A stretch of 32,000 nucleotides of DNA from contig CALHPJ010000016.1 of the NCBI GenBank assembly GCA_938036345.1, positions 1 to 32,000 of the forward strand, in the 5' to 3' direction. This DNA is from an uncultured Thermofilaceae archaeon (GTDB taxonomy: Archaea; Thermoproteota; Thermoprotei; Thermofilales; Thermofilaceae). The first letter of the stretch is position 1. The number at the start of each line of letters is the position of its first letter. Both the position numbers and the translations under genes were made by a program. The notes beneath the pieces were generated by a model that saw only the letters and a program-made list of their open reading frames with translations, ran no database searches and had not been told where the DNA came from. Positions 2,212-21,065 of the stretch are shown piece after piece.

Positions 2212-2688
2212 ATGGCTGAGTACGTAGTCAGGATGTTTAGACCCGAGGACTTGGATGAAGTTATAAAAATTAATCGGGAAAATCTTCCCGAAAACTATCC
2301 TCCGTTTTTCTTTAAATTGCATTATGAAAACTTTCCGCAGGCTTTCCTTGTGGCCGAATCTGGTGGGAAAGTAATTGGCTACATAATGTGTAGAGTCGAA
2401 AACGGAAAGCTTTACACCAAGCACGGTGTGGGAAGGCAAGGGCACATAGTGTCAATAGCAGTTATCCCTGAAATGAGGGGTAGAGGTGTGGGAACGGAAC
2501 TGATGAAGAAGGCCATGAAAGCTCTTCATGATGTCTATGGCGTTGAAGAGTATTACTTGGAAGTTCGCGTATCGAATATACCAGCCATAAACCTCTACAC
2601 AAAATTGGGTTTTGAAAAAGTTAAAATCCTGAAGGGTTACTACTTAAACGGCGAAGATGCATATTTAATGGCTAAACAAGCTCTGTGA
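2212..2688 (+). CDS. N-alpha-acetyltransferase, GNAT family (archaeal Ard1/RimI-like)
   Basis: GNAT acetyl-CoA motif IAVIPEMRGRGVGTELM, plus YLEVRVSNIPAINLYTKLGF. It starts 13 nt downstream of the tbp stop and is probably co-transcribed. Confidence 0.85.
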   Translation: MAEYVVRMFRPEDLDEVIKINRENLPENYPPFFFKLHYENFPQAFLVAESGGKVIGYIMCRVENGKLYTKHGVGRQGHIVSIAVIPEMRGRGVGTELMKKAMKALHDVYGVEEYYLEVRVSNIPAINLYTKLGFEKVKILKGYYLNGEDAYLMAKQAL

Positions 2689-2695
2689 ATCGATG

Positions 2696-3628
2696 TCAAG
2701 TTTTTAATTGCACCATTAAGTTATTTAGCAAATCGTTTGCATCTTTTTCGCGGCTAAGTTTAGAGTAAACGGCCAGACCAATAAATCTATCTAGATTCCT
2801 ATCGTACCATAGGTTACCTATAAAAATCTTTTTCATGCTTTTTAGTATATGGAAAGTTGATCCTTTAATTTTAAAAGTATTATCTTCAACTTCTTCATAC
2901 TTTATCTTAGGAAGATCTACCTTTGTAACCTTTTTAAAATCTTTAATGACGTTCTTTTCGAACCATTCCACCGCTCCCTTTTTGAATCTACCCATCAGCA
3001 TACTGGCCAACCCGCTATAACTCACAATAGTGTACTCTTCCAACTTTTCTTTTGAAAAAATGCAGTACGAAGATAGGGTGGTGAATTTCGCTGATACTAG
3101 CTTGTACTCTTGGGGCATGTACAAGTTGAATAAAAGCAGAGACCATGTCGCGCGCTCGGATAGCGAGGTGTAATGGCACTTTACACTTTTAAGAATTTTT
3201 TTCAGCAATTCTTCCTCTTCTTCAACCCTGTATGGCGTAAACGTTAATGAAACGGCTCTTTCACTTTTTTCACAGTACCAAAGAACCGCCTTCATGGGCG
3301 CTCCTGCTACTCTGAAGGTCCAAAGAAGCCCGTTATGGCCAGCTATTTCGATTTCCTCCTTATGTACATGCTTTACTTCGACTTCCATGCGTTTTTTCCT
3401 GAGTTCCTTCAACCGTTCTTCCCATGCTTTTTGGTATACGCTTAACATCTCGTTTAGGCTCTTTGCTTTTTCGAAGGGAACTCTTTCTAAGGTTATCTCC
3501 AGCCTGACATTTGCGCTATCTGCTATTCTAAAAAACTCGGCATTGCCACTCGCTCCTTCAGCCACTATATCCCATTCATTCGGAACTGAAAGCTCAAAGT
3601 GCCTCCAACCTACTTGTTTCAGCGACAT
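2696..3628 (-). CDS. Hypothetical protein built from two tandem ~150-aa repeats of an unknown domain
   Basis: Long ORF of 310 aa. The two halves share W..(F/L).L..P.E near their starts and LWY......R...L....(acidic)..LL..L...K near their ends. I recognise no family. Confidence 0.6.
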   Translation of the reverse strand: MSLKQVGWRHFELSVPNEWDIVAEGASGNAEFFRIADSANVRLEITLERVPFEKAKSLNEMLSVYQKAWEERLKELRKKRMEVEVKHVHKEEIEIAGHNGLLWTFRVAGAPMKAVLWYCEKSERAVSLTFTPYRVEEEEELLKKILKSVKCHYTSLSERATWSLLLFNLYMPQEYKLVSAKFTTLSSYCIFSKEKLEEYTIVSYSGLASMLMGRFKKGAVEWFEKNVIKDFKKVTKVDLPKIKYEEVEDNTFKIKGSTFHILKSMKKIFIGNLWYDRNLDRFIGLAVYSKLSREKDANDLLNNLMVQLKT

Positions 3629-4009: not shown

Positions 4010-4618
4010 CTACCTTATGTGTTCCCTAGCATACACGTAAATCCCGTCGAGAACGCCGGGTCCACCTTCTCGCCCATGCGGGCACAACCTGTATTTGCCG
4101 CGAAGCCTTACGGCGTCCCGAATGTTTGCGGCAGTTTGCGCTACAGCTTCCTTGTCAACGCCTTCAATGACCACTTCGTCTTTCTCAACTTTAACCTTAA
4201 TGCCAGGTACGATACGGGCCGTTATTTTACCGCGCCTGCCTAGAAAATTCTCTATTACAACTATGTTGTTTTTCTCGTCAACCTTAATATTCATCGGGAA
4301 ATGCGCATATACCACTTTCATTTTATATCTATATCCTTTTTGAACTCCCTTTATCATATTATTAATCAAAGAATATAATAAGTTAACTATAGAATAAGTT
4401 TTCTTTTCAACCATAAATGCCTCTAACACTATCTTACCGTTCTCTAGACGTACCTCGACATTCTTAATATGGGATACATCTTTCTCTATGCTGCCTAGGG
4501 GGCCATCTACCCTGATGCGTTGGCCGTCTATAGCTACTTTCACACCAGACGGTATCTCCAGCTCTCTCCTGACGTACTCTGCCTTCAAGGCCAAATCCCC
4601 TAAGCTCGCCCTCAGCAT
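4010..4618 (-). CDS. rpl6: Ribosomal protein L6 (uL6)
   Basis: KGYRYKMKVVYAHFPMNIKV, VAQTAANIRDA and LDGIYVY closely resemble the crenarchaeal L6 sequences I remember. I chose ATG 4618 (MLRASLGDLALKAEYVRRELEIPSGV) rather than TTG 4690. Confidence 0.82.
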   Translation of the reverse strand: MLRASLGDLALKAEYVRRELEIPSGVKVAIDGQRIRVDGPLGSIEKDVSHIKNVEVRLENGKIVLEAFMVEKKTYSIVNLLYSLINNMIKGVQKGYRYKMKVVYAHFPMNIKVDEKNNIVVIENFLGRRGKITARIVPGIKVKVEKDEVVIEGVDKEAVAQTAANIRDAVRLRGKYRLCPHGREGGPGVLDGIYVYAREHIR

Positions 4619-5113: not shown

Positions 5114-5656
5114 TTATTTATCAATCCCCTTACTTTCTAGCTTCACGAGTTCAGTCAGGCGCTTTACACCGCCTATCTCCCGTATTATGCGCGCCACAGC
5201 CGGGGGTACGAACGTCTCCCATCCAGCGTCTTCGGCTATAATCCTCCTAATCTTTGTCCCCTCGTAGACCTCCCTTTCTAGAAAAGGGATACCTACAACT
5301 TCGTAACCCGCCTCTTCAAAGAGCAGGCGGGTTAAGGGTTCGTTGGTATACACTCTTCTGAAACGAGGGCATAGTGACACAACCGTTTGAACCCAAAGGG
5401 AATGTTTTCCGTCCGTGTCGGGCACTGCTGCTAGAATCACTCTCTCCCATAACCCCTCCTCCTTAAGTGCTGTAGCGATCATCTCCAATCTCTCGCCTAA
5501 AGTGAAAGGGTTTTTAAAGCTATGAGAGTATTGCGCACTGCCAACTGCGACAACAACTTCAGCCTCCCTACTTAATATCCACTTGAGAGCATGTAGGTGA
5601 CCTTTATGAAAGGGTTGAAAGCGGCCTATGAAGAGGGCGCGGTCAATACCGGACAA
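5114..5656 (-). CDS. nadM: Nicotinamide-nucleotide adenylyltransferase (archaeal NMNAT)
   Basis: N-terminal ALFIGRFQPFHKGHLHALKWIL, the (H/T)xGH nucleotidyltransferase motif as found in archaeal NMNAT. 180 aa. The start overlaps the rgy stop by 14 nt. Confidence 0.88.
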   Translation of the reverse strand: MSGIDRALFIGRFQPFHKGHLHALKWILSREAEVVVAVGSAQYSHSFKNPFTLGERLEMIATALKEEGLWERVILAAVPDTDGKHSLWVQTVVSLCPRFRRVYTNEPLTRLLFEEAGYEVVGIPFLEREVYEGTKIRRIIAEDAGWETFVPPAVARIIREIGGVKRLTELVKLESKGIDK

Positions 5657-8600
5657 CTGTCATCACCTCGTTGTAAAAGTCTTTTAACGCTCTCAAATAC
5701 TCCACCTCCCCTCTCTCAATCCTATCCATTATCTCCTCTACTTTCCTGGTTCTTTCCACGGATACTAACTGCCGGTACCTCTCCTCGGACGATAAGTAGT
5801 TGAATACGTCTATGCCCAACCTTGTGGGTATTAAACGATGCCTCTTGGTTTCTACAACATACTTTCTTTCGAGGAGTACGGCAATTATTTTCGCGTAAGT
5901 TGAAGGTCTTCCAATGCCCTCCTCCTTCATGCGAGCAACGAGGTCTGCCTGAGTGTAAAGTCTCTCAGCTGGCATCTTCCTCCGCCTAACTTCAGACACT
6001 GTATAGGATCCCGGCTCGATCCGCGCTAGCTTGAAGGGCATATAAACTGCCGTAAAACCATGTTCTACTATATCGGAATAAAAAGTCAGCTCCTTTGAAT
6101 AGTTTTTCACCTTCACGTTGTACTTTGCAATCTTAACCACGGCCTCGCTCATCTGGCTAGCCATAAAGCGGCGGAATATCAGGTCGTACAGGCGGATATG
6201 CGCATTGGTTAATGGTCTAGCTAACTGTAATATGCCCTGGTTCACCAGTGCCTTCAAAGTATCTGCATCGTGGGGTCTAGTGGGCCTTATACACTCATGG
6301 GTCCCCGGAGGTCCCCAGGAACGGCCCCTAAATACTGCCTCGCCGAATTTCTCAGCAATGTAGCTTTTAGCGATCCCCACCCCGACACTCGAAACATGGG
6401 GGCTGTCAGTCCTATGGTAGGTTATTAAACCCATTTCAAAAAGATCTTGTGCAAGTCTCATGGTTTCTTCTACTCCAAAACCTAGGCTCTGCATCGCTTC
6501 TCTCAGCAAGGTATCGGTGGTTAATGGAGGAGGAGGGGCCATTTTAACTGATTCTACCCCCTGAAGCTCAATCACCGCTACTGAGCCTTTAAGTTCTTTA
6601 GCTACCTCGCTTGCCGCCTTCTCTAAATTATCCAACTCTAAAGTTATTATAAGTCCGTTCTCTAATCTTAATTTGAATATAGTTCTAAAGCTTTTCTTAA
6701 CTTTTTCATACTGTTCTATTACCCAGCCCAGTACCGGCGTTTGAACCCTCCCTGCCGAAAGCCACTGCTTCCCAAACGCGTTCCACAGCTTTTGGCTTAG
6801 CGAGAAACCTATCCACCTGTCCTCTATCCTGCGCACCAACTGTGCCTCAACCCTTTTCACATCGATGATCCGGGGATTCGCTATAGCCTCCTCGAACGCG
6901 CGCCGTGTAACCTCGTGAAACTCTATTCGCTCGATCCTCTTTGCATAAGGTTTGAGCAGCACGTAAAGATCCCACGCTATCTTCTCTCCCTCTGTATCCG
7001 GATCCGTTGCAAGAAAAACAGTATCAATCTCGCTTGCAACTTCCCTTAGAGCGTCGATTACAGCCTGCTGGTCAATTAAGTTGGTAGAGTTGCAGTAGGG
7101 GCATACGTACCCATTGCCGGGTACCGTAAATTGCTCACCGCAGTTCAGGCACCTCTTTATAGTAGCATAAATCGGAACAAACTTCCCATCGCTTACTAGG
7201 ACACCCCAGAAACCCTCGTCTGTAACGAGGTCTATTACGTGGCCTCTGCTTGCTGCGATTAGGAGGATGTAACCGCCGGAGCTGACTTCGTATACGTTAA
7301 TTGCATTAAGTTTACGCATCGAGGGCCTCCCAAAGAAGGAAGCTATTGTGCGTGCTTTAGTTGGTGACTCCACGACAACTAGGGCTGTCCTAACGATATC
7401 GGCAGCCCCCTGCTTCACTTCCCCTTTAGCGAAGCTTATAATGAGCTCCCTATCCCTATCCACTTCACTTACTACTTTACTTAAATTCAATTCATCGAAC
7501 CTAACCCAACTACATTCGTCGGTGTACCAGCTTACCTGTTTTTGCAGCGCTGTTAACAATTTCTCGTCGTCAGCAATTACTACGGAGAGGCCCTTTGATA
7601 TACCCCCCGCGAACATCCGCGATGTCCTACCCGTAGCCTGCAAGTACGTGGGTGCATCAGGTATCAGTAGAAATGGCTTGCCGTTCATCAAACGTATCGA
7701 GGCGACGGCCCTCTCCTCCAAGGCTTTTAAGATCTCGCTCCTGGAAATTAGCTCCTTCAGGATAGCGCGCAGCTCGAGGACCTGGCCGTATATTTGACCC
7801 AGAAAGCCATCCGGTCTCTTGCTGGCGTTCAATGCTTCGGAGAGAACTCTAAAGGATTGAATCTCCAAATCCCTGAGACGCCGTCTTAGGCTAGTGGTTA
7901 ATCTGTCTAGTCTAGCCGCCTCACTGCCGGACAAAACGCTCCTGAGTGCCTGTGCAATCTGTAAAAGCCTGAGGGGGTTTGCTTCCTCGACCTCAGCGGA
8001 GAACTTGAAGTGGGGTGTACCGGCGAATATAGCATATCTGATTATATGCGGGAGATCTATACCTCTGACCAGTAGACCGTAGTATGTGGCATAACCTATG
8101 AGAACATCTAGCTCACCATTCTCAAATCTCGAGAAAGCCTTCTTGCTTTTTGAGGTGACAAGCTCAGCCTTGATCCCCTTCTCAGCGAGAAGCGTGAGAA
8201 GCTTCTCTACGCGTTCACTCGAAACGCCGGGCTGGATGAAGATAAGGCCTCCTCTACCGAGCCTTGAAGCCACCTCAGCTACGTGTTTTTCGAGGTCCCC
8301 TTCGCTGACCAGCAAGTATGAATCGACCACGTTTCTCAGCAACTCCGTGCGTGAACCAATCTCGAAACCTAGTAGTTCTCTGAAAAGCTTGACCTTCAGG
8401 CCTCTCGGCCGGCCGGTAGCTGTAGAAACGACTAGTACACCTATTTCCCTGTTGGATGTCAACTCCTTAAGCTTCTGTCTAGCTTCATTTAATTCGTGTA
8501 ACCTATCTTCCGAGAACCTACTTTTGCTCACAGTCAAACGCAATATTTTGTTTGCCATGTTTATGGCTTCTTGAGATAGACCTAATAATAAAAGGATTCT

Positions 8601-9299
8601 ATCGATATTTTTAGAAGATTTAATAATAGAGTCAACGTCATCGACGAAGATAAAATCGAACTTTGCATTTTTTATGAGTTCAAAGTTCCTACTTAAGAAG
8701 TGGGAGGTAGTCACTAAAATTCCATAGTCCCCTCCAGCAATTCTGTTTATTACCTCTGTTTTTTCCTTTCCGCCTTTAACGATGTAAGCTGCAACTTTAA
8801 CGTTGAGTCCTAGCTTTTCTGCATACGTTGCCAGCCTATCACTTGTCTGCTTTACTAAAAGACTTGTAGGCTGAATTAAGTAGCACTTCTTACCCTTAGT
8901 GGCTAAGTACAACGCCATTATAATGCCGAATAGACTTTTACCCACTCCTGTTGGAGCTAGTATCGTGAACGACTTTCCTTTAAAAACCCTTTTTGCCCAC
9001 GTAATCTGGGCGCTCCATGGGGGATTTCCTATGGCATTCCTAAAGAATTTACTGAACTCCTGGACTGACTCCTCTTCAAGTAAAAACTCTCCGAATTTAT
9101 TTTTGCTCTCTGAGCAAGGAATGTAGTTACAGAGTTCCTTTAAAAAGCTTAATCTATCTTTTTGAACTAGCTCGAGGAGCCTTATATCGATGTCTGGCAG
9201 GCATTTTTCGCAAGGGAGACCCCTGCTGAGACGCTCGTCGGAGATCGGTCTACCGCAGCTGGGGCATTGATCTCTCACTATTAGGCGCACACAGCACAC
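5643..9299 (-). CDS. rgy: Reverse gyrase (helicase-like domain fused to a type IA topoisomerase)
   Basis: 1218 aa. It has an N-terminal Zn finger CPSCG...CEKC, Walker A APTGVGKS, FVDDVD, a Toprim box VVESPTKA, a second Zn ribbon CLNCG...CPYC, and the topo IA active-site region GLITYHRTDS. GTG start; the exact start is uncertain. Confidence 0.97.
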   Translation of the reverse strand: MCCVRLIVRDQCPSCGRPISDERLSRGLPCEKCLPDIDIRLLELVQKDRLSFLKELCNYIPCSESKNKFGEFLLEEESVQEFSKFFRNAIGNPPWSAQITWAKRVFKGKSFTILAPTGVGKSLFGIIMALYLATKGKKCYLIQPTSLLVKQTSDRLATYAEKLGLNVKVAAYIVKGGKEKTEVINRIAGGDYGILVTTSHFLSRNFELIKNAKFDFIFVDDVDSIIKSSKNIDRILLLLGLSQEAINMANKILRLTVSKSRFSEDRLHELNEARQKLKELTSNREIGVLVVSTATGRPRGLKVKLFRELLGFEIGSRTELLRNVVDSYLLVSEGDLEKHVAEVASRLGRGGLIFIQPGVSSERVEKLLTLLAEKGIKAELVTSKSKKAFSRFENGELDVLIGYATYYGLLVRGIDLPHIIRYAIFAGTPHFKFSAEVEEANPLRLLQIAQALRSVLSGSEAARLDRLTTSLRRRLRDLEIQSFRVLSEALNASKRPDGFLGQIYGQVLELRAILKELISRSEILKALEERAVASIRLMNGKPFLLIPDAPTYLQATGRTSRMFAGGISKGLSVVIADDEKLLTALQKQVSWYTDECSWVRFDELNLSKVVSEVDRDRELIISFAKGEVKQGAADIVRTALVVVESPTKARTIASFFGRPSMRKLNAINVYEVSSGGYILLIAASRGHVIDLVTDEGFWGVLVSDGKFVPIYATIKRCLNCGEQFTVPGNGYVCPYCNSTNLIDQQAVIDALREVASEIDTVFLATDPDTEGEKIAWDLYVLLKPYAKRIERIEFHEVTRRAFEEAIANPRIIDVKRVEAQLVRRIEDRWIGFSLSQKLWNAFGKQWLSAGRVQTPVLGWVIEQYEKVKKSFRTIFKLRLENGLIITLELDNLEKAASEVAKELKGSVAVIELQGVESVKMAPPPPLTTDTLLREAMQSLGFGVEETMRLAQDLFEMGLITYHRTDSPHVSSVGVGIAKSYIAEKFGEAVFRGRSWGPPGTHECIRPTRPHDADTLKALVNQGILQLARPLTNAHIRLYDLIFRRFMASQMSEAVVKIAKYNVKVKNYSKELTFYSDIVEHGFTAVYMPFKLARIEPGSYTVSEVRRRKMPAERLYTQADLVARMKEEGIGRPSTYAKIIAVLLERKYVVETKRHRLIPTRLGIDVFNYLSSEERYRQLVSVERTRKVEEIMDRIERGEVEYLRALKDFYNEVMTVVRY

Positions 9300-16435: not shown

Positions 16436-16447
16436 CTAATGCTTATA
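16436..16447 (+). promoter_or_regulatory. tRNA-Arg(GCG) promoter core containing a TATA box
   Basis: CTAATGCTTATA ends 26 nt before tRNA position +1. The identical 12-mer recurs at 19129-19140 upstream of the twin tRNA-Arg. Confidence 0.6.
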
Positions 16448-16472
16448 TACCTAAGTTGAGAGCAGAGGAGAG

Positions 16473-16564
16473 GGGCCCGTGGCCTAGCTTGGAAAGGCGT
16501 CGACCCGCGGTGGGGCGCAAGCCTGCGGAGCCGGAGAACCCGGGTTCAAGTCCCGGCGGGCCCG
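16473..16564 (+). tRNA. tRNA-Arg(GCG) with an 18-nt intron in the anticodon stem (between positions 29/30); no encoded CCA
   Basis: Hand fold: GGGCCCG-TG-GCCTAGCTTGGAAAGGC-G-TCG[ACCCGCGGTGGGGCGCAA]GC-CTGCGGA-GCCGG-AGAAC-CCGGGTTCAAGTCCCGG-CGGGCCC-G. The stem UCGGC/GCCGG forms only after the 18 nt are removed. Confidence 0.82.
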
Positions 16565-16610
16565 CTGCACTCGTAATAGCAAGCCCCTAAGCTTGGTTAC
16601 GGCTAAATCG

Positions 16611-16937
16611 TTACTTTACCTGCCCCTTTCCTTTCAGTGGGTATCTCCGAATGTAGCCGCACCGAAGACAGGTTACCACTATTTTGGTACCTCCGCACCC
16701 CTTCTTTACTCTAATACGGGCTGTATAGCCCGGGATGAGAGGTACCTTACACCTTCTACAGTACCGCCTCTTTACTTCCCTCGGAAGCTTAAGGCGGGCT
16801 TTAGCCGCTATTCTGAAAGCTAACTGTACGTAACGTTTAGCTAGCTCCTCATCCTTTCTAAGAACATCACTGGCTAGATTCAGGAGAATGCGAACTCTCT
16901 CTCCGGCTATACGCTTTACCTCATAGCGTGAAGCCAC
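16611..16937 (-). CDS. rnp4: RNase P protein component 4 (Rpp21/Rpr2 family)
   Basis: ERVRILLNLA...LAKRYVQLAFRIAAKARLKLPREVKRRYCRRCKVPLIPG...RIRV...VVTCLRCGYIRRYP: a helical N-terminus plus a CxxC...CxxC zinc ribbon. 108 aa, GTG start. Confidence 0.85.
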   Translation of the reverse strand: MASRYEVKRIAGERVRILLNLASDVLRKDEELAKRYVQLAFRIAAKARLKLPREVKRRYCRRCKVPLIPGYTARIRVKKGCGGTKIVVTCLRCGYIRRYPLKGKGQVK

Positions 16938-17010
16938 GCTGCTACACCTCGAACCCTGCCTGGAGGTTCAACGGTAATGGTTATAACCCCTCTCTCACAG
17001 ATAGGGTGAG

Positions 17011-17106
17011 GCCGGGGTGGCCGAGTGGTCGAAGGCGGCGGGCTGCAGTGGCGGTGTCGTGCGTGGAAACCCGCTACTCACCCGGGTTCGAATCCCGGCC
17101 CCGGCT
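17011..17106 (+). tRNA. tRNA-Cys(GCA) with a 20-nt intron at 37/38; no encoded CCA
   Basis: Hand fold: GCCGGGG-TG-GCCGAGTGGTCGAAGGC-G-GCGGG-CTGCAG[TGGCGGTGTCGTGCGTGGAA]A-CCCGC-TACTCA-CCGGGTTCGAATCCCGG-CCCCGGC-T. Discriminator U73 fits Cys identity. The 6-nt variable loop is slightly unusual. TATA-like TTATAA lies about 25-30 nt upstream. Confidence 0.78.
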
Positions 17107-17195
17107 CTACTCTAGATCGCGCGCTTAGCTTTCTTGCCATAACATTGGCATAAATTTTTAGCTAACCTTATTTCCAGAAGCTCGGGAAATTCTGT

Positions 17196-19115
17196 TTACA
17201 TTCTGTGCGGCGGATCTATCCCCAGCATCCTCATTCCATTCTCCAAGGTTATGGCTACCATTTTCACAAGCGCTAACCTCGCTTGAGCCTTCTCCCTCGG
17301 TTCCGCCTTCAGTATAGGCACCTTATCGTAGTAGCTGTTGAAAGCTAATGCCAGCTCGTTCAAGTACTGCGCTAGAGACTCTATCTTCAGCTCGTCAGCG
17401 GCCTTAGCTACCACTTCAGGCAGATAACTGACAAGCAAAAGCAGCTTCTTTTCCTCCTCGCCGAAAGCGCCCTCAGGTACGCCTGGCTTCAGGTCGCCGG
17501 CCTTCCGGAGAATGGACCTAGCTCTTACGTAGGCATACTGGATAAACGGGCCGCTGTTACGCTCGAAATCCAGAATTTTCTCCCATTTGAATGAAAGCGG
17601 GCGAAGCGGTGAGATGCTTAGCATTGCATACTTCACTGCCCCGATCCCTACTCTTTCAGCTACGTCCCTATTTTCTTCAGGCTCGAGGCCCCTTTTAACA
17701 AGCTCTTCGCAAGCTCTTTTAACCGCTTCATCGATAAGCTCATCAGCGGATACGTATCTGCCCCTCCTACCCGACATTTTTACTCCCGGCAGTGTCACAA
17801 GCTCGTAGGAAAAGTGAATCACGTTTTCGGCTTCCTTAACGTAGCCGAGCGCGTAAAGCGCCAATTTAACCTGAATTTGCTCAAGGGACTGTTGTGCAGC
17901 TATAACGTTCACAACCCTGCTCGCTCCCTGCTTGAATTTCCAAAGTGAATACGCGATATCCCTGGTCGCGTAAAGCGTAGTTCCATCAGAGCGCATAAGA
18001 GTCAAAGGAGTAACAGTGAAATTCTCCGGTATACCAAGCTTCCTCCTAATTTCAGCATCTTCAGCAAGTTTATCCGCTTCAAAAACGATAGCTCCCCGAT
18101 CTACGTGGGCATAGCCGGCCTCTTTTAGCTGCCTAATGACCTCATCCGATAAACCGTTCCAAACCGCGACATCGCTTTCCCAATCCCATTTGTCGAAGGA
18201 TATTCCCATTCTGCTTAGGGTTTGCTTAAAGCCTTCAATGCAGAGCCCAGCTACCTCTCTAACTAGCTTTACAGCCCACTCCTCGCCTGCTTCGTAAGCG
18301 CGGTTTATCTCTAAAATCCTAGCTAAGGGGTTTTCCCTCTTCGTAGCCTCAGATAATATAGAAAACAGCTCCTCATCCCTTTCCATAAGCTCTTTCGAAA
18401 CCCACAACCAATCCAAAAGTTCTCTATCGATCTCAGCGCGCCTCGCCGGATCCTCCTCCGTCCTTCTTTTCCCATCCAACTCCCGGACATTGACAATCGC
18501 GTTAACAATCGCGTAAACCAACCCTATGTAGTGATCCGGTTTCACATCCCTTTTAACGTGCTTCACCTTTTCGTAGCCGTAAGCTGCATAAGCCATCTGC
18601 AGGCCGACGTCATCCACGTAGAAGTGTACTTCAACAGTGTGCCCTCGAGCCCTAAGCACCTTAGCTAACGCATCACCCAATATCGCATTCCTTAGATGAC
18701 CGACGTGGAGTGGGTGAACGGGGTTCGCGCTAGTGTGCTCGATAATTATCCGTATCGGAGAGGGGTGGGGATTGAAGCCATACGTGCCGCCCATGCTAGT
18801 GACTACATCCCATACCAGCTTGCCATAGAGATTGGGTTCTATACGTATGTTAACGTAACCCCCTTCACTTCTCGCATCCATTATGTAACGTGAAGAATTT
18901 TTAATTTTTCCAGCTATTTCGTTAGCCATTTTTACAGCCATGTCCTCGTCTCTAAAAAGCCTGTATAAGTTTACGGCCAGGTCTCCCCGGTCAGGAGGGG
19001 CTTTTTCAACAGAAATACCGGGCCCTGCTAAATCTCCGGGTAGGGCTCGGTTAAAGGCATCCCTAACCTCCCTCTCTAACGCCTGGTACGCGCTGTAAAG
19101 CTTCATCGCAACCAC
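17196..19115 (-). CDS. argS: Arginyl-tRNA synthetase
   Basis: Class I HIGH-type box SANPVHPLHVGHLRNA, an MSGRRG (KMSK-like) box, and a C-terminal anticodon-binding helical domain. 639 aa from GTG 19115; ATG 19106 is an alternative start. Confidence 0.95.
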   Translation of the reverse strand: MVAMKLYSAYQALEREVRDAFNRALPGDLAGPGISVEKAPPDRGDLAVNLYRLFRDEDMAVKMANEIAGKIKNSSRYIMDARSEGGYVNIRIEPNLYGKLVWDVVTSMGGTYGFNPHPSPIRIIIEHTSANPVHPLHVGHLRNAILGDALAKVLRARGHTVEVHFYVDDVGLQMAYAAYGYEKVKHVKRDVKPDHYIGLVYAIVNAIVNVRELDGKRRTEEDPARRAEIDRELLDWLWVSKELMERDEELFSILSEATKRENPLARILEINRAYEAGEEWAVKLVREVAGLCIEGFKQTLSRMGISFDKWDWESDVAVWNGLSDEVIRQLKEAGYAHVDRGAIVFEADKLAEDAEIRRKLGIPENFTVTPLTLMRSDGTTLYATRDIAYSLWKFKQGASRVVNVIAAQQSLEQIQVKLALYALGYVKEAENVIHFSYELVTLPGVKMSGRRGRYVSADELIDEAVKRACEELVKRGLEPEENRDVAERVGIGAVKYAMLSISPLRPLSFKWEKILDFERNSGPFIQYAYVRARSILRKAGDLKPGVPEGAFGEEEKKLLLLVSYLPEVVAKAADELKIESLAQYLNELALAFNSYYDKVPILKAEPREKAQARLALVKMVAITLENGMRMLGIDPPHRM

Positions 19116-19128
19116 GCTGATACCAGTG

Positions 19129-19140
19129 CTAATGCTTATA
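19129..19140 (+). promoter_or_regulatory. tRNA-Arg(UCU) promoter core containing a TATA box
   Basis: CTAATGCTTATA, identical to 16436-16447. It ends 35 nt before tRNA +1 and lies in the ~60-bp divergent spacer shared with argS. Confidence 0.55.
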
Positions 19141-19174
19141 AGCTTGGCTTTACCAGAGGTTTCAGGGAAAGCAG

Positions 19175-19269
19175 GGGCCCGTGGCCTAGCTTGGAAAGGC
19201 GTCGACCCGCGGTGGGGCGCAAGCCTTCTAAGCCGGAGAACCCGGGTTCAAGTCCCGGCGGGCCCGCCA
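19175..19269 (+). tRNA. tRNA-Arg(UCU) with the same 18-nt intron at 29/30; CCA encoded
   Basis: Identical to 16473-16564 apart from the anticodon loop (CTTCTAA instead of CTGCGGA). Followed directly by CCA at 19267-19269. Confidence 0.82.
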
Positions 19270-19644: not shown

Positions 19645-19735
19645 AGCCCCGGCCGGGGTTTGAACCCGGGTCCTCCGCCTCTCTGGAACAGCCAGCTTTA
19701 CCAGAGCGGCGCTCTGCCGGCTGAGCTACCGGGGC
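19645..19735 (-). tRNA. tRNA-Thr(GGU) with an 18-nt intron (37/38 by my preferred parse); no encoded CCA
   Basis: Hand fold of the reverse complement: GCCCCGG-TA-GCTCAGCCGGCAGAGC-G-CCGCT-CTGGTA[AAGCTGGCTGTTCCAGAG]A-GGCGG-AGGAC-CCGGGTTCAAACCCCGG-CCGGGGC-T. An alternative splice register inside the 3' stem strand is possible. Confidence 0.82.
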
Positions 19736-19787
19736 CTACTCCCTTTCTCAGGCATGAATTTAAGTTTTTATTGGCAACAATTTGCAG

Positions 19788-21065
19788 ATGCTGCCCAGCA
19801 ATAAACGGCTAGTTAGTGGACTCTACAGGGTTGAGGGAGCAGCTAAATTGAGGGTGCTTGAGGGGTGCTTCTATGCTTTAGGAAGGTATTTCAGAAAAGG
19901 GGATGAATTAGTAGTCCCTAGGGGCTCAATCGTATGCATAAATGTTGAATCGGAATGCGTTATTGAAGGCTCTATTGCCGGCTCGATAGAGGAAGCTAAA
20001 CCGGAGGAAGAAGTAATCAACACTTGGAAAACCCTATCTGACGATTTAACTTCGAAGAAAAGAAAAATCATAGTCATAGGTGAACCCGATAGTGGTAAAA
20101 CGACTTTTTCAACGTTCTTAGTTAATTCTGCTCTCTCTAAAAGTTTGAAAGTAGCCTTTATCGACGCGGATGTAGGCCAAAACGACGTCGGCTGGCCAGG
20201 TACGATAGCCTTAGCTCTCCCAACTCGACCTCTATCCTGGCTGGGGCAACTCGAGCCCGCGGCCATTTACTTCGTGGGCTCCAATACGCCTAATGGTTTT
20301 GAAGATGCTGTCTTAGTGGGCATAAGAAAAATCTTGGAAAAAACAGCTGGCTGCAATCTAACGGTGGTAAACACAGATGGATGGGTCGCGGGCAAGCGGG
20401 CTATCCTTTATAAAGCAAGGCTCATCGAAGCGGTCAACCCCGACGCTCTAGTCGTGATGAGGGGGGCTGGCCTAGCCGATTGCATAGCTAGGATGTTCGA
20501 GCACTCGAACACAGAGGTGGTTTACGCCCCAACCCCTCCCATGGTTAAATGCAAGGATAGAGAGTTAAGGAAAACGCGAAGAGATCTCGCATATTTGGAC
20601 TTTTTAATTAATTCATCGGTTAAATATTTGAACTTAGATAAGGTAAAGTTTTACGGAACGTACACTTTGAACTTGCAAACCGATCCTATGCTTAGAGAAC
20701 TCATAACTTCGCTGCTGGGCTTCGAGGTTCAAGTTGAGGCTGGCAGCAACGTAGTCGTGCTGGCCGTCAGTGGCGAGCAAGCCTACAAACGTGTCTTGGA
20801 AATGCGAGAACAGCTTTCCAAAACATTAGGCAAGGAAGTTTACGTTTCAAACATTGAGGGGCTCAAGGGATTGCTCGTGGGATTCCTTAACCAAGAGCTG
20901 GAGCACGTAGGCGTGGGTGTTATTGAAGAACTCAACCTACCTGGGAAGGTCGTTAAAGTGAGAACCCCCTTCCCAGTCGACGACGTGTGCCTCCTTATCC
21001 CCAGCGTGCTAAAGGTCACGGAAAAGGGTGTGGAAAGAGAGAGGGGTCTTTTCCCGCTAGCTTGA
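19788..21065 (+). CDS. Clp1-like polynucleotide 5'-hydroxyl kinase (P-loop NTPase, COG1341-type)
   Basis: P-loop VIGEPDSGKTTF followed by the Clp1/Grc3-type FIDADVGQNDVG box. About 425 aa. ATG 19788 is preferred over TTG 19782. TATA-like TTTTTATT lies at 19765-19772, suggesting a near-leaderless transcript. Confidence 0.75.
   Translation: MLPSNKRLVSGLYRVEGAAKLRVLEGCFYALGRYFRKGDELVVPRGSIVCINVESECVIEGSIAGSIEEAKPEEEVINTWKTLSDDLTSKKRKIIVIGEPDSGKTTFSTFLVNSALSKSLKVAFIDADVGQNDVGWPGTIALALPTRPLSWLGQLEPAAIYFVGSNTPNGFEDAVLVGIRKILEKTAGCNLTVVNTDGWVAGKRAILYKARLIEAVNPDALVVMRGAGLADCIARMFEHSNTEVVYAPTPPMVKCKDRELRKTRRDLAYLDFLINSSVKYLNLDKVKFYGTYTLNLQTDPMLRELITSLLGFEVQVEAGSNVVVLAVSGEQAYKRVLEMREQLSKTLGKEVYVSNIEGLKGLLVGFLNQELEHVGVGVIEELNLPGKVVKVRTPFPVDDVCLLIPSVLKVTEKGVERERGLFPLA

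Follow-up and report, generated by a model that had tools for sequence, protein, structure and literature searches.

How do two tRNA genes that serve different arginine codon boxes come to share their whole sequence, non-canonical intron included, except in the anticodon loop? The question is posed by a 32,000-nucleotide (nt) stretch of the genome of an uncultured Thermofilaceae archaeon (GenBank assembly GCA_938036345.1, contig CALHPJ010000016.1, positions 1 to 32,000; hereafter the window), which carries a tRNA-Arg(GCG) and a tRNA-Arg(UCU) gene on either side of argS, the gene for arginyl-tRNA synthetase (ArgRS). The answer we consider probable is that both genes are functional, each with its own promoter and a relaxed bulge-helix-bulge (BHB) intron, and that they belong to a tRNA-Arg family whose concerted evolution is driven by gene conversion within the gene body only, while selection preserves positions 34, 36 and 37. 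The parts of the two genes are as follows.

16473..16502, plus strand: tRNA-Arg(GCG) exon 1, positions 1-29 (Rfam, hand parse, ARAGORN on the spliced product)
16503..16520, plus strand: 18-nt BHB intron at 29/30, ACCCGCGGTGGGGCGCAA (BHB geometry, inner-helix covariation)
16521..16564, plus strand: tRNA-Arg(GCG) exon 2, positions 30-73, with anticodon GCG at 16525-16527 and G37 at 16528, then CTG
19175..19204, plus strand: tRNA-Arg(UCU) exon 1, positions 1-29 (Rfam, hand parse, ARAGORN on the spliced product)
19205..19222, plus strand: 18-nt BHB intron at 29/30, ACCCGCGGTGGGGCGCAA, identical in this copy (alignment, BHB geometry)
19223..19269, plus strand: tRNA-Arg(UCU) exon 2, positions 30-73, with genomic CCA at 19267-19269, anticodon TCT at 19227-19229 and A37 at 19230

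Aligned over 92 nt each on the plus strand (16473-16564 and 19175-19266), the genes are identical at 89/92 positions, and the three mismatches (CTGCGGA against CTTCTAA) fall at tRNA positions 34, 36 and 37, all within the anticodon loop. The block of identity runs from -2 nt on the 5' side of the gene to +1 nt on the 3' side, beyond which the flanks are unalignable between the paralogues. Both genes match the Rfam tRNA model (42.0 bits for the GCG copy and 46.4 for the UCU copy; gathering score 29), and ARAGORN reads the 74-nt products spliced at 29/30 as tRNA-Arg(gcg) and tRNA-Arg(tct), intron removal restoring a canonical cloverleaf with all four stems paired. Parsed by hand, the tRNA has an acceptor strand GGGCCCG, a D-arm GCCU / AGCUUGGAA / AGGC with one additional D-loop nucleotide (17a), then G26, an anticodon stem in which UCG and GC, split by the intron, pair with GCCGG, a variable loop AGAAC, a T-arm CCGGG / UUCAAGU / CCCGG and a discriminator G73. 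G37 (as m1G37) suits readers of CGN codons and A37 (as t6A37) readers of ANN codons, so that the three differences comprise the anticodon and a purine 37 suited to the codon box, and all three would be functionally required: the GCG tRNA would read CGY codons, and the UCU tRNA would read AGA and possibly AGG. A first-pass annotation, made from the window sequence without database searches, had described 92-nt twins differing only at these loop positions, with GCG and UCU anticodons and with a genomic CCA behind the UCU copy only, and alignment and ARAGORN bear this out; the GCG gene is followed by CTG (16565-16567), which leaves its tRNA fully dependent on the CCA-adding enzyme. Genomic CCA follows nearly every other tRNA-Arg gene in the relatives, and the UCG gene of the sister species has CTA.

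The insert sits between TCG and GC in both genes, which with 17a counted is position 29/30, and its boundary cannot be slid without altering the mature tRNA sequence. The same annotation was right that the insert is identical in the two copies and non-canonical in position, although the position is already in the literature, where 29/30 and 45/46 are among the listed sites of archaeal non-canonical introns (PMC4090602). Geometry was checked by looking for a 4-bp central helix directly 5' of each 3-nt bulge, with cleavage past the second bulge nucleotide. In both window genes exon nucleotides G24-C25-G26-U27 (GCGU) pair with intron GCGC at 4/4 positions (G-C, C-G, G-C, U-G), the bulges are CG/A and AA/G, the slash marking cleavage, and an inner helix of 3-4 bp forms between CCC(G) and (U)GGG. 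The 4/4 central helix and 3-nt bulges recur in 13/13 distinct gene/intron combinations from seven species. Among these combinations the central helix tolerates changes from C-G to U-G and from G-C to G-U, and the inner helices, of 3-5 bp, vary in compensatory fashion across the seven species (CCC(G)/(C)GGG, AGCU/AGCU, ACU/GGU, GCGCC/GGCGC). The outer helix consists of one base pair with an A-C mismatch next to it, and only the UCU copy offers a way to lengthen it, through pairing between D-loop UUGGAA and anticodon-loop UUCUAA. The motif therefore resembles the relaxed HBh' class more than the strict hBHBh' class. In each pre-tRNA the 18-nt intron would fold with exon nucleotides 24-28 into this relaxed BHB, a broad-specificity heterotetrameric splicing endonuclease would excise it, and the halves would be ligated into a standard 74-nt tRNA. 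Splicing at 29/30 in vivo is what analogy with other Crenarchaeota predicts, whose alpha2-beta2 EndA cleaves relaxed motifs at non-standard positions (PMC3241643). In all 27 tRNA-Arg family members examined, splicing at 29/30 yields a perfect cloverleaf by ARAGORN.

These 27 distinct genes come from the window and nine other lineages, with three more genes from loci L026-L028; they were collected from the argS neighbourhoods of nine relatives and from a scan of GTDB representative genomes with the conserved 5' 27-mer, which gave 16 loci in six metagenome-assembled genomes (MAGs). The sister species is represented by four independent assemblies (L001-L003, L022), and L005/DRTY2, L006/SKYB99 and RSNS8 (L021, with L010 on another contig) are further lineages. 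The window genome is represented by the two window genes, its CCG, UCG and CCU genes lying outside the comparison. The window, all assemblies of the sister species (L001-L003, L022), L005/L008, L006/L020 and L027 have the order tRNA-Arg(UCU), argS, (tRNA-Cys), (Rpp21), tRNA-Arg(GCG); L004 and RSNS8 (L021) have this layout with CCG in place of GCG. Counting either anticodon in the latter slot, the two positions around argS are occupied alike in at least seven lineages besides the window. Outside the anticodon loop the exon body shows 0-5 differences over 70 positions across the clade (at least 10 lineages) and across isoacceptors, which makes the near-identity of GCG and UCU an old condition and not a recent one. 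The 27-mer scan found no tRNA-Arg(CCU) with this 5' body in the six representative genomes, where that gene may be absent, have another body or be split within its first 27 nt.

If the exons are nearly invariant, what does the intron record? In a four-way alignment of the window and sister genes with their flanks, the upstream and downstream sequences pair by locus, GCG with GCG and UCU with UCU, whereas the intron groups by genome: the two window genes carry ACCCGCGGTGGGGCGCAA and the two sister genes the 19-nt ACCCGTTAACGGGGCGCAA, with a hairpin loop of CGGT in the window and TTAAC in the sister, one with an indel. Both loci must therefore be older than the divergence of the two species, after which sequence has passed between the paralogues. 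In the sister representative genome the GCG, UCU, CCG and UCG genes have identical exons and carry ACCCGTTAACGGGGCGCAA in 4/4 cases, on at least two contigs and amid flanks that are unrelated except for a GCG/UCU trailer. The window intron is present in 2/2 genes, and the sister GCG/UCU pair is unchanged in three further assemblies of that species. The trailer, a 15-nt stretch 3' of the sister's GCG and UCU genes (CCACACATACAATAG), points to a tract exchanged at the DNA level. Exon positions that distinguish species (D-loop 17, position 27, T-loop 57/59) mostly agree among the genes of one genome. Exon distance averages 1.63 between genes of one genome with different anticodons and 2.51 between same-anticodon genes of different genomes, and 0/5000 label permutations reached the observed value. 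Where sequence can vary freely, paralogues are more alike within a genome than orthologues are between genomes, the pattern by which concerted evolution is recognised. Gene conversion sparing the anticodon loop had been one of two explanations put forward in the first-pass annotation, and an intron that differs between sister species but is identical among the paralogues of each genome lends it support.

The distribution of the intron in the clade suggests a direction for the exchange. The UCU gene carries a 29/30 intron in eight sampled lineages, including L004, L005/DRTY2, L006/SKYB99, L026, L027 and RSNS8. The syntenic GCG gene is without it in L005/DRTY2, L006/SKYB99 and L027, the GCG genes of RSNS8 (on the other contig, L010) and B17_G15 (L017) are intronless too, and only in the window and the sister lineage does the syntenic GCG gene have it. 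Judged by this distribution, the intron of the GCG gene is a derived gain. The T-loop of UCU genes is usually G57/A59, and in the window and sister species it is the GCG-type A57/G59. With a UCU-type intron and a GCG-type T-loop, the present sequence is chimeric between ancestral UCU and GCG types; this state and the sister's 15-nt trailer together suggest conversion tracts. Scans of metagenomes with the window intron and with a loop-degenerate version of it gave 0 matches, and no intermediate genome was found. Introns are also shared among isoacceptors elsewhere in the family: SKYB99 has almost the same 45/46 intron in its GCG, CCG and UCU genes, the GCG and UCG genes of KUA21 share a 20-nt 29/30 intron with two differences (its UCU gene has an anticodon-loop intron instead), and in RSNS8 related 29/30 introns are shared by UCG and UCU.

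A second intron, in the variable loop, is present in the UCU gene of most relatives (L004:5790-5901, L005:5833-5951, L006:5512-5622, L021:4828-4941, L026:3797-3908, L027:3810-3920). By a strict BHB search it lies at 45/46 in L004 and RSNS8 only, and the same search gave no 4/4 central helix for it in L005, L006 and DRTY2. The window and sister species are without it, having lost it or never gained it.

How might such exchange proceed? A single ArgRS would read all isoacceptors of the clade, which share an almost invariant exon body. The paralogues would exchange sequence by non-reciprocal homologous recombination limited to the gene body of ~90 nt. Conversion would have spread the 29/30 intron from an intron-bearing paralogue to GCG, and in the sister also to CCG and UCG; it would also have given UCU, the usual intron carrier in the clade, its GCG-type T-loop, and would have maintained a single intron sequence per genome from the time the two species separated. 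Selection would remove the conversion products that overwrite 34, 36 or 37, so that only the anticodon loop stays different. The transfer from an intron-bearing paralogue to GCG, the recombination mechanism and selection as the reason why the anticodon loop escapes conversion are what we infer from the patterns above.

Several points weigh against this account. The exons are too conserved for conversion tracts to be mapped within them, and with just 4 nt between the intron and position 34 any tract ending there is short. This gap implies short or discontinuous tracts, or a whole-gene heteroduplex in which each mismatch is resolved separately. Conversion in such short patches has been described for Sulfolobus. 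The permutation test on the exon distances takes no account of how the genomes are related to one another. At minimum energy a structure other than the BHB conformer is predicted (-37.0 and -41.6 kcal/mol for the BHB against -45.4 and -48.1), and the outer helix of the GCG copy is a single base pair. Minimum-energy folding also misses the cloverleaf of the spliced tRNA and is therefore uninformative here, the support for the BHB being comparative rather than thermodynamic. Transcription, splicing and charging of these tRNAs are predicted from sequence. Finally, the data are compatible with replacement of the whole gene followed by back-mutation of the anticodon: the path from UCU through UCG to GCG remains within arginine, and all the arginine anticodons found here are linked by single substitutions that stay within arginine.

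Could the likeness arise with no exchange of DNA at all? Purifying or parallel selection could hold all isoacceptors to one optimum set by ArgRS identity elements, modification enzymes and thermostability. Such constraint is real: the exons are near-invariant in at least 10 lineages, it explains much of their identity, and it remains a contributing factor alongside conversion. Selection on the mature tRNA does not, however, account for an intron loop that is identical between paralogues and differs between sisters (CGGT against TTAAC), for the 15-nt 3' trailer shared in the sister, or for the patchy presence and absence of introns among isoacceptors, and as the whole explanation it is unlikely.

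A second alternative moves the intron at the RNA level, the excised intron re-inserting into a paralogous (pre-)tRNA that offers the same BHB-forming context and then being copied back into DNA. We know of no reverse transcriptase or reverse-splicing activity for BHB introns, which speaks against this route, and homogenisation of the T-loop and of the trailer, both outside the intron, fits DNA-level recombination better. On the other side, similar introns occur at the same position in different tRNA genes of Thermoproteales, where the BHB requirement is thought to define the targets (PMC4090602, PMC4033280), and the exon context is identical in all the tRNA-Arg genes considered here; the review cited for transposition nevertheless favours a DNA-level process. 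We regard RNA-level transposition as improbable for the pattern as a whole, although it could have served in the initial gain of the intron.

A third alternative is a recent duplication of one tRNA-Arg gene, intron and promoter included, followed by anticodon remoulding through three substitutions at 34, 36 and 37. It draws on the 89/92 identity and on an identical 12-nt core in the putative promoters.

16436..16447, plus strand: BRE/TATA-like promoter core of tRNA-Arg(GCG), CTAATGCTTATA, 26 nt from the gene start (exact 12-mer; function inferred from position and consensus)
19129..19140, plus strand: BRE/TATA-like promoter core of tRNA-Arg(UCU), CTAATGCTTATA, 35 nt from the gene start (exact 12-mer; putative)

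It also draws on CCG occupying the syntenic GCG slot in L004 and RSNS8, and on true cases elsewhere in the family, where the GCG and CCG genes of RSNS8 share 40 nt upstream and the UCU and CCG genes of L007 and L028 share 28 nt. The window pair is of another kind. The same anticodons occupy the same slots in the window, the sister, L005/DRTY2, L006/SKYB99 and L027; each flank aligns with its orthologous locus and cannot be aligned with that of the paralogue; in the sister the two promoter cores are unlike each other; and an intron loop that distinguishes the species and is common to the paralogues requires exchange once both loci existed. The first-pass annotation had named near-identity between these isoacceptors at non-syntenic loci of related genomes as the observation that would count against duplication, and the sister species provides it. 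Conserved slots, locus-wise orthology of the flanks and isoacceptor near-identity in relatives lead us to reject for the window pair the recent duplication that the annotation had offered as its other explanation, and we hold it to be very improbable. Unrelated flanks and stable anticodons set the window genes apart from RSNS8, L007, L028 and L004, where shared upstream sequence or a changed anticodon at the syntenic locus is recognisable. The cases elsewhere in the family imply that both processes operate. That leaves an assembly or binning artefact, a collapsed or chimeric repeat of the kind a MAG contig might harbour, which is negligible given the same arrangement in four independent sister assemblies (L001, L002, L003, L022) and several other species and given two copies with distinct unique flanks and distinct anticodons.

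The upstream-sharing pairs have 28-40 nt of promoter/leader in common in addition to the body (L010:3676-3749 and L021:2176-2249 in RSNS8; L007:188-261 and 5867-5940; L028:746-831 and 4098-4171). These GCG/CCG and UCU/CCG pairs look like true duplications followed by anticodon change, unlike the window pair. The CCG genes in the syntenic slot beside Rpp21 (L004:8542-8615, L021:2176-2249) are an isoacceptor switch at a conserved locus, the GCG gene of RSNS8 being on its other contig.

Does homogenisation extend into the promoter, and does proximity to argS play a part? The first-pass annotation had identity continuing through the intron and the promoter. The exact 12-mer does stand before both genes, at 26 and 35 nt, but the promoter is not part of the homogenised block: the orthologous cores of the sister species differ (CAATGCTTAAAT at the GCG locus, TAATACTTATAA at the UCU locus), a 10/12 match (GTAATGGTTATA) lies 26 nt upstream of tRNA-Cys, and GCTTATA-type cores stand upstream of many tRNA-Arg genes in the relatives. 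The shared 12-mer thus falls outside the block and looks like two instances of a BRE/TATA consensus general to tRNA promoters. Co-conversion of the promoter is ruled out by the differing sister cores and the near-match at tRNA-Cys. Between the two tRNA-Arg genes lie the following.

16611..16937, minus strand: Rpp21/Rpr2, RNase P protein subunit (PF04032, E = 6.6e-19)
17011..17106, plus strand: tRNA-Cys(GCA), its anticodon loop enlarged by an insertion of ~20 nt (Rfam tRNA, 48.6 bits)
17196..19106, minus strand: arginyl-tRNA synthetase argS (PF00750, PF05746, PF03485; ATG start at 19106, alternative GTG start at 19115)

Pfam and Rfam matches agree with the earlier identification of these three genes. 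The window ArgRS is a 100% match to a 636-residue database protein (P0001) with the same start (ATG, 19106), and is 84% identical to that of a Thermofilaceae MAG, 63-70% to a next group of Thermofilaceae/Thermofilum MAGs and 47-49% to those of Infirmifilum lucidum, I. uzonense and Thermofilum pendens. The position beside the cognate synthetase had been thought notable. Adjacency is indeed kept within the clade, but no tRNA was detected within 5 kb of argS in T. pendens, and the argS neighbours in Infirmifilum lucidum are tRNA-Phe and tRNA-Val, with no tRNA-Arg beside the gene. By this comparison the adjacency is conserved only within this clade and is lineage-specific, and functional coupling to argS is unsupported beyond that synteny. 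The description of a twin pair bracketing argS likewise holds for the window but not as a peculiarity of argS, for in the sister a common body and intron are found in four isoacceptor genes, of which two occupy other loci. Since two of these four identical genes lie away from argS, adjacency is not needed for homogenisation.

How do these genes compare with known systems? Non-canonical archaeal tRNA introns were reportedly surveyed by Marck & Grosjean 2003 and by Sugahara et al. 2006-2009. The introns described here resemble the non-canonical BHB introns of Crenarchaeota, especially Thermoproteales, in the 29/30 site and in their short length, 17-21 nt here (PMC4090602). The 4-bp central helix, the two 3-nt bulges drawn partly from the exon and the relaxed HBh' outer helix are also the same, and relatives of the window carry several introns per gene (29/30 and 45/46), as those genes do. 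There is no structural difference; the host is an uncultured Thermofilaceae lineage outside those surveys. Fujishima et al. 2010 are reported to have grouped as transposed those introns that are more than ~70% similar and share a position in evolutionarily distinct tRNA genes; by that definition the present introns stand apart, being identical but hosted by isoacceptors with identical exons. Similar introns among Thermoproteales tRNA genes have been termed 'intron transposition', with the mechanism stated as unknown (PMC4090602, PMC4033280). The two situations are alike in having similar introns at one position in different tRNA genes and a patchy distribution across species. Transposition was reported between phylogenetically distinct bodies, whereas here the hosts are isoacceptors with identical exons, and the comparison of flanks with introns points to homologous conversion at pre-existing loci.

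Concerted evolution and anticodon shifts in tRNA families are described for eukaryotic multicopy families or experimental yeast (PMC3923123, PMC4981973, PMC3868979). The likeness is that paralogues are similar within a genome and that anticodons differ on a shared body. The archaeal genes differ in being single-copy isoacceptors with a BHB intron as a marker of conversion, and the anticodons of the window pair are stable at their loci. Split and tri-split tRNAs, reportedly the work of Fujishima 2009 and Randau 2005, follow the same logic of one body with several anticodons. In Caldivirga and Nanoarchaeum such tRNAs reuse one half for several isoacceptors (PMC4033280, PMC4090602), and tRNA-Ala of Caldivirga has split sites at 29/30 (PMC4090602). 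Unlike these, each window isoacceptor is a complete, contiguous, cis-spliced gene with no physically shared part.

The 29/30 position, the sharing of introns among Thermoproteales tRNAs and concerted evolution of tRNAs are thus already known. What may be new is a clean, datable case, in an uncultured Thermofilaceae clade, of a BHB intron that homologous conversion carried from one existing isoacceptor locus to another and that has stayed identical in as many as four genes. It would be a dated natural example of such movement in an archaeon, its timing fixed by two sister species, and on our reading the locus-specific flanks would fix the mechanism as DNA-level and homology-dependent. The case is relevant to how Thermoproteales came to have so many non-canonical introns. 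Conversion between isoacceptors with identical exons could be the actual mechanism that spreads and maintains them, a possibility that we entertain without yet favouring it; if true, the tRNA-Arg genes of Thermofilaceae would form one evolving body with interchangeable anticodon loops, short or discontinuous conversion tracts that end a few nucleotides from position 34 and isoacceptor identities that sometimes jump between loci, CCG in the GCG slot being an instance. The case also cautions that near-identical isoacceptors should not be taken for recent duplicates.

There is a practical side as well, in that standard annotation of such MAGs may report tRNA-Arg isoacceptors as missing together with spurious tRNA-Pro genes. 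ARAGORN calls both unspliced window genes (16473-16565 and 19175-19269) tRNA-Pro(cgg) by misreading the intron as the anticodon arm, a call set aside because splicing at 29/30 gives Arg. The Rfam tRNA alignment puts the insert in the D-arm of the UCU copy and in the anticodon loop of the GCG copy and flags non-canonical pairs, an artefact of a model that has no states for non-canonical introns. Standard annotation of the window MAG would probably show spurious tRNA-Pro genes and miss tRNA-Arg(GCG) and tRNA-Arg(UCU).

Three further observations concern neighbouring or related loci. In SKYB99 (L014 2380-3360, minus strand) a direct repeat of ~59 nt, made up of the promoter region and first 24 nt of tRNA-Arg(CCG), brackets ~0.8 kb with an open reading frame (ORF) for 230 amino acids (2552-3244, minus strand); of the two copies, one is at the head of the ORF and the other at the head of the intact tRNA gene, and the arrangement could be an insertion or duplication that reuses a tRNA promoter. 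A Clp1-family P-loop polynucleotide kinase gene in the window (19782-21065, plus strand; PF16575, E = 2.5e-37) adjoins an intron-containing tRNA-Thr(GGU) gene (19645-19735, minus strand) and tRNA-Arg(UCU), an adjacency kept in L001, L004, L005, L006, L026 and L027. At 5643-9299 on the minus strand, the window has a 1218-residue ORF syntenic to a 1215-residue L001 gene with reverse-gyrase domains (zf_Rg, helicase, Toprim, Topoisom_bac); by this synteny the ORF is reverse-gyrase-like and consistent with a hyperthermophilic host.

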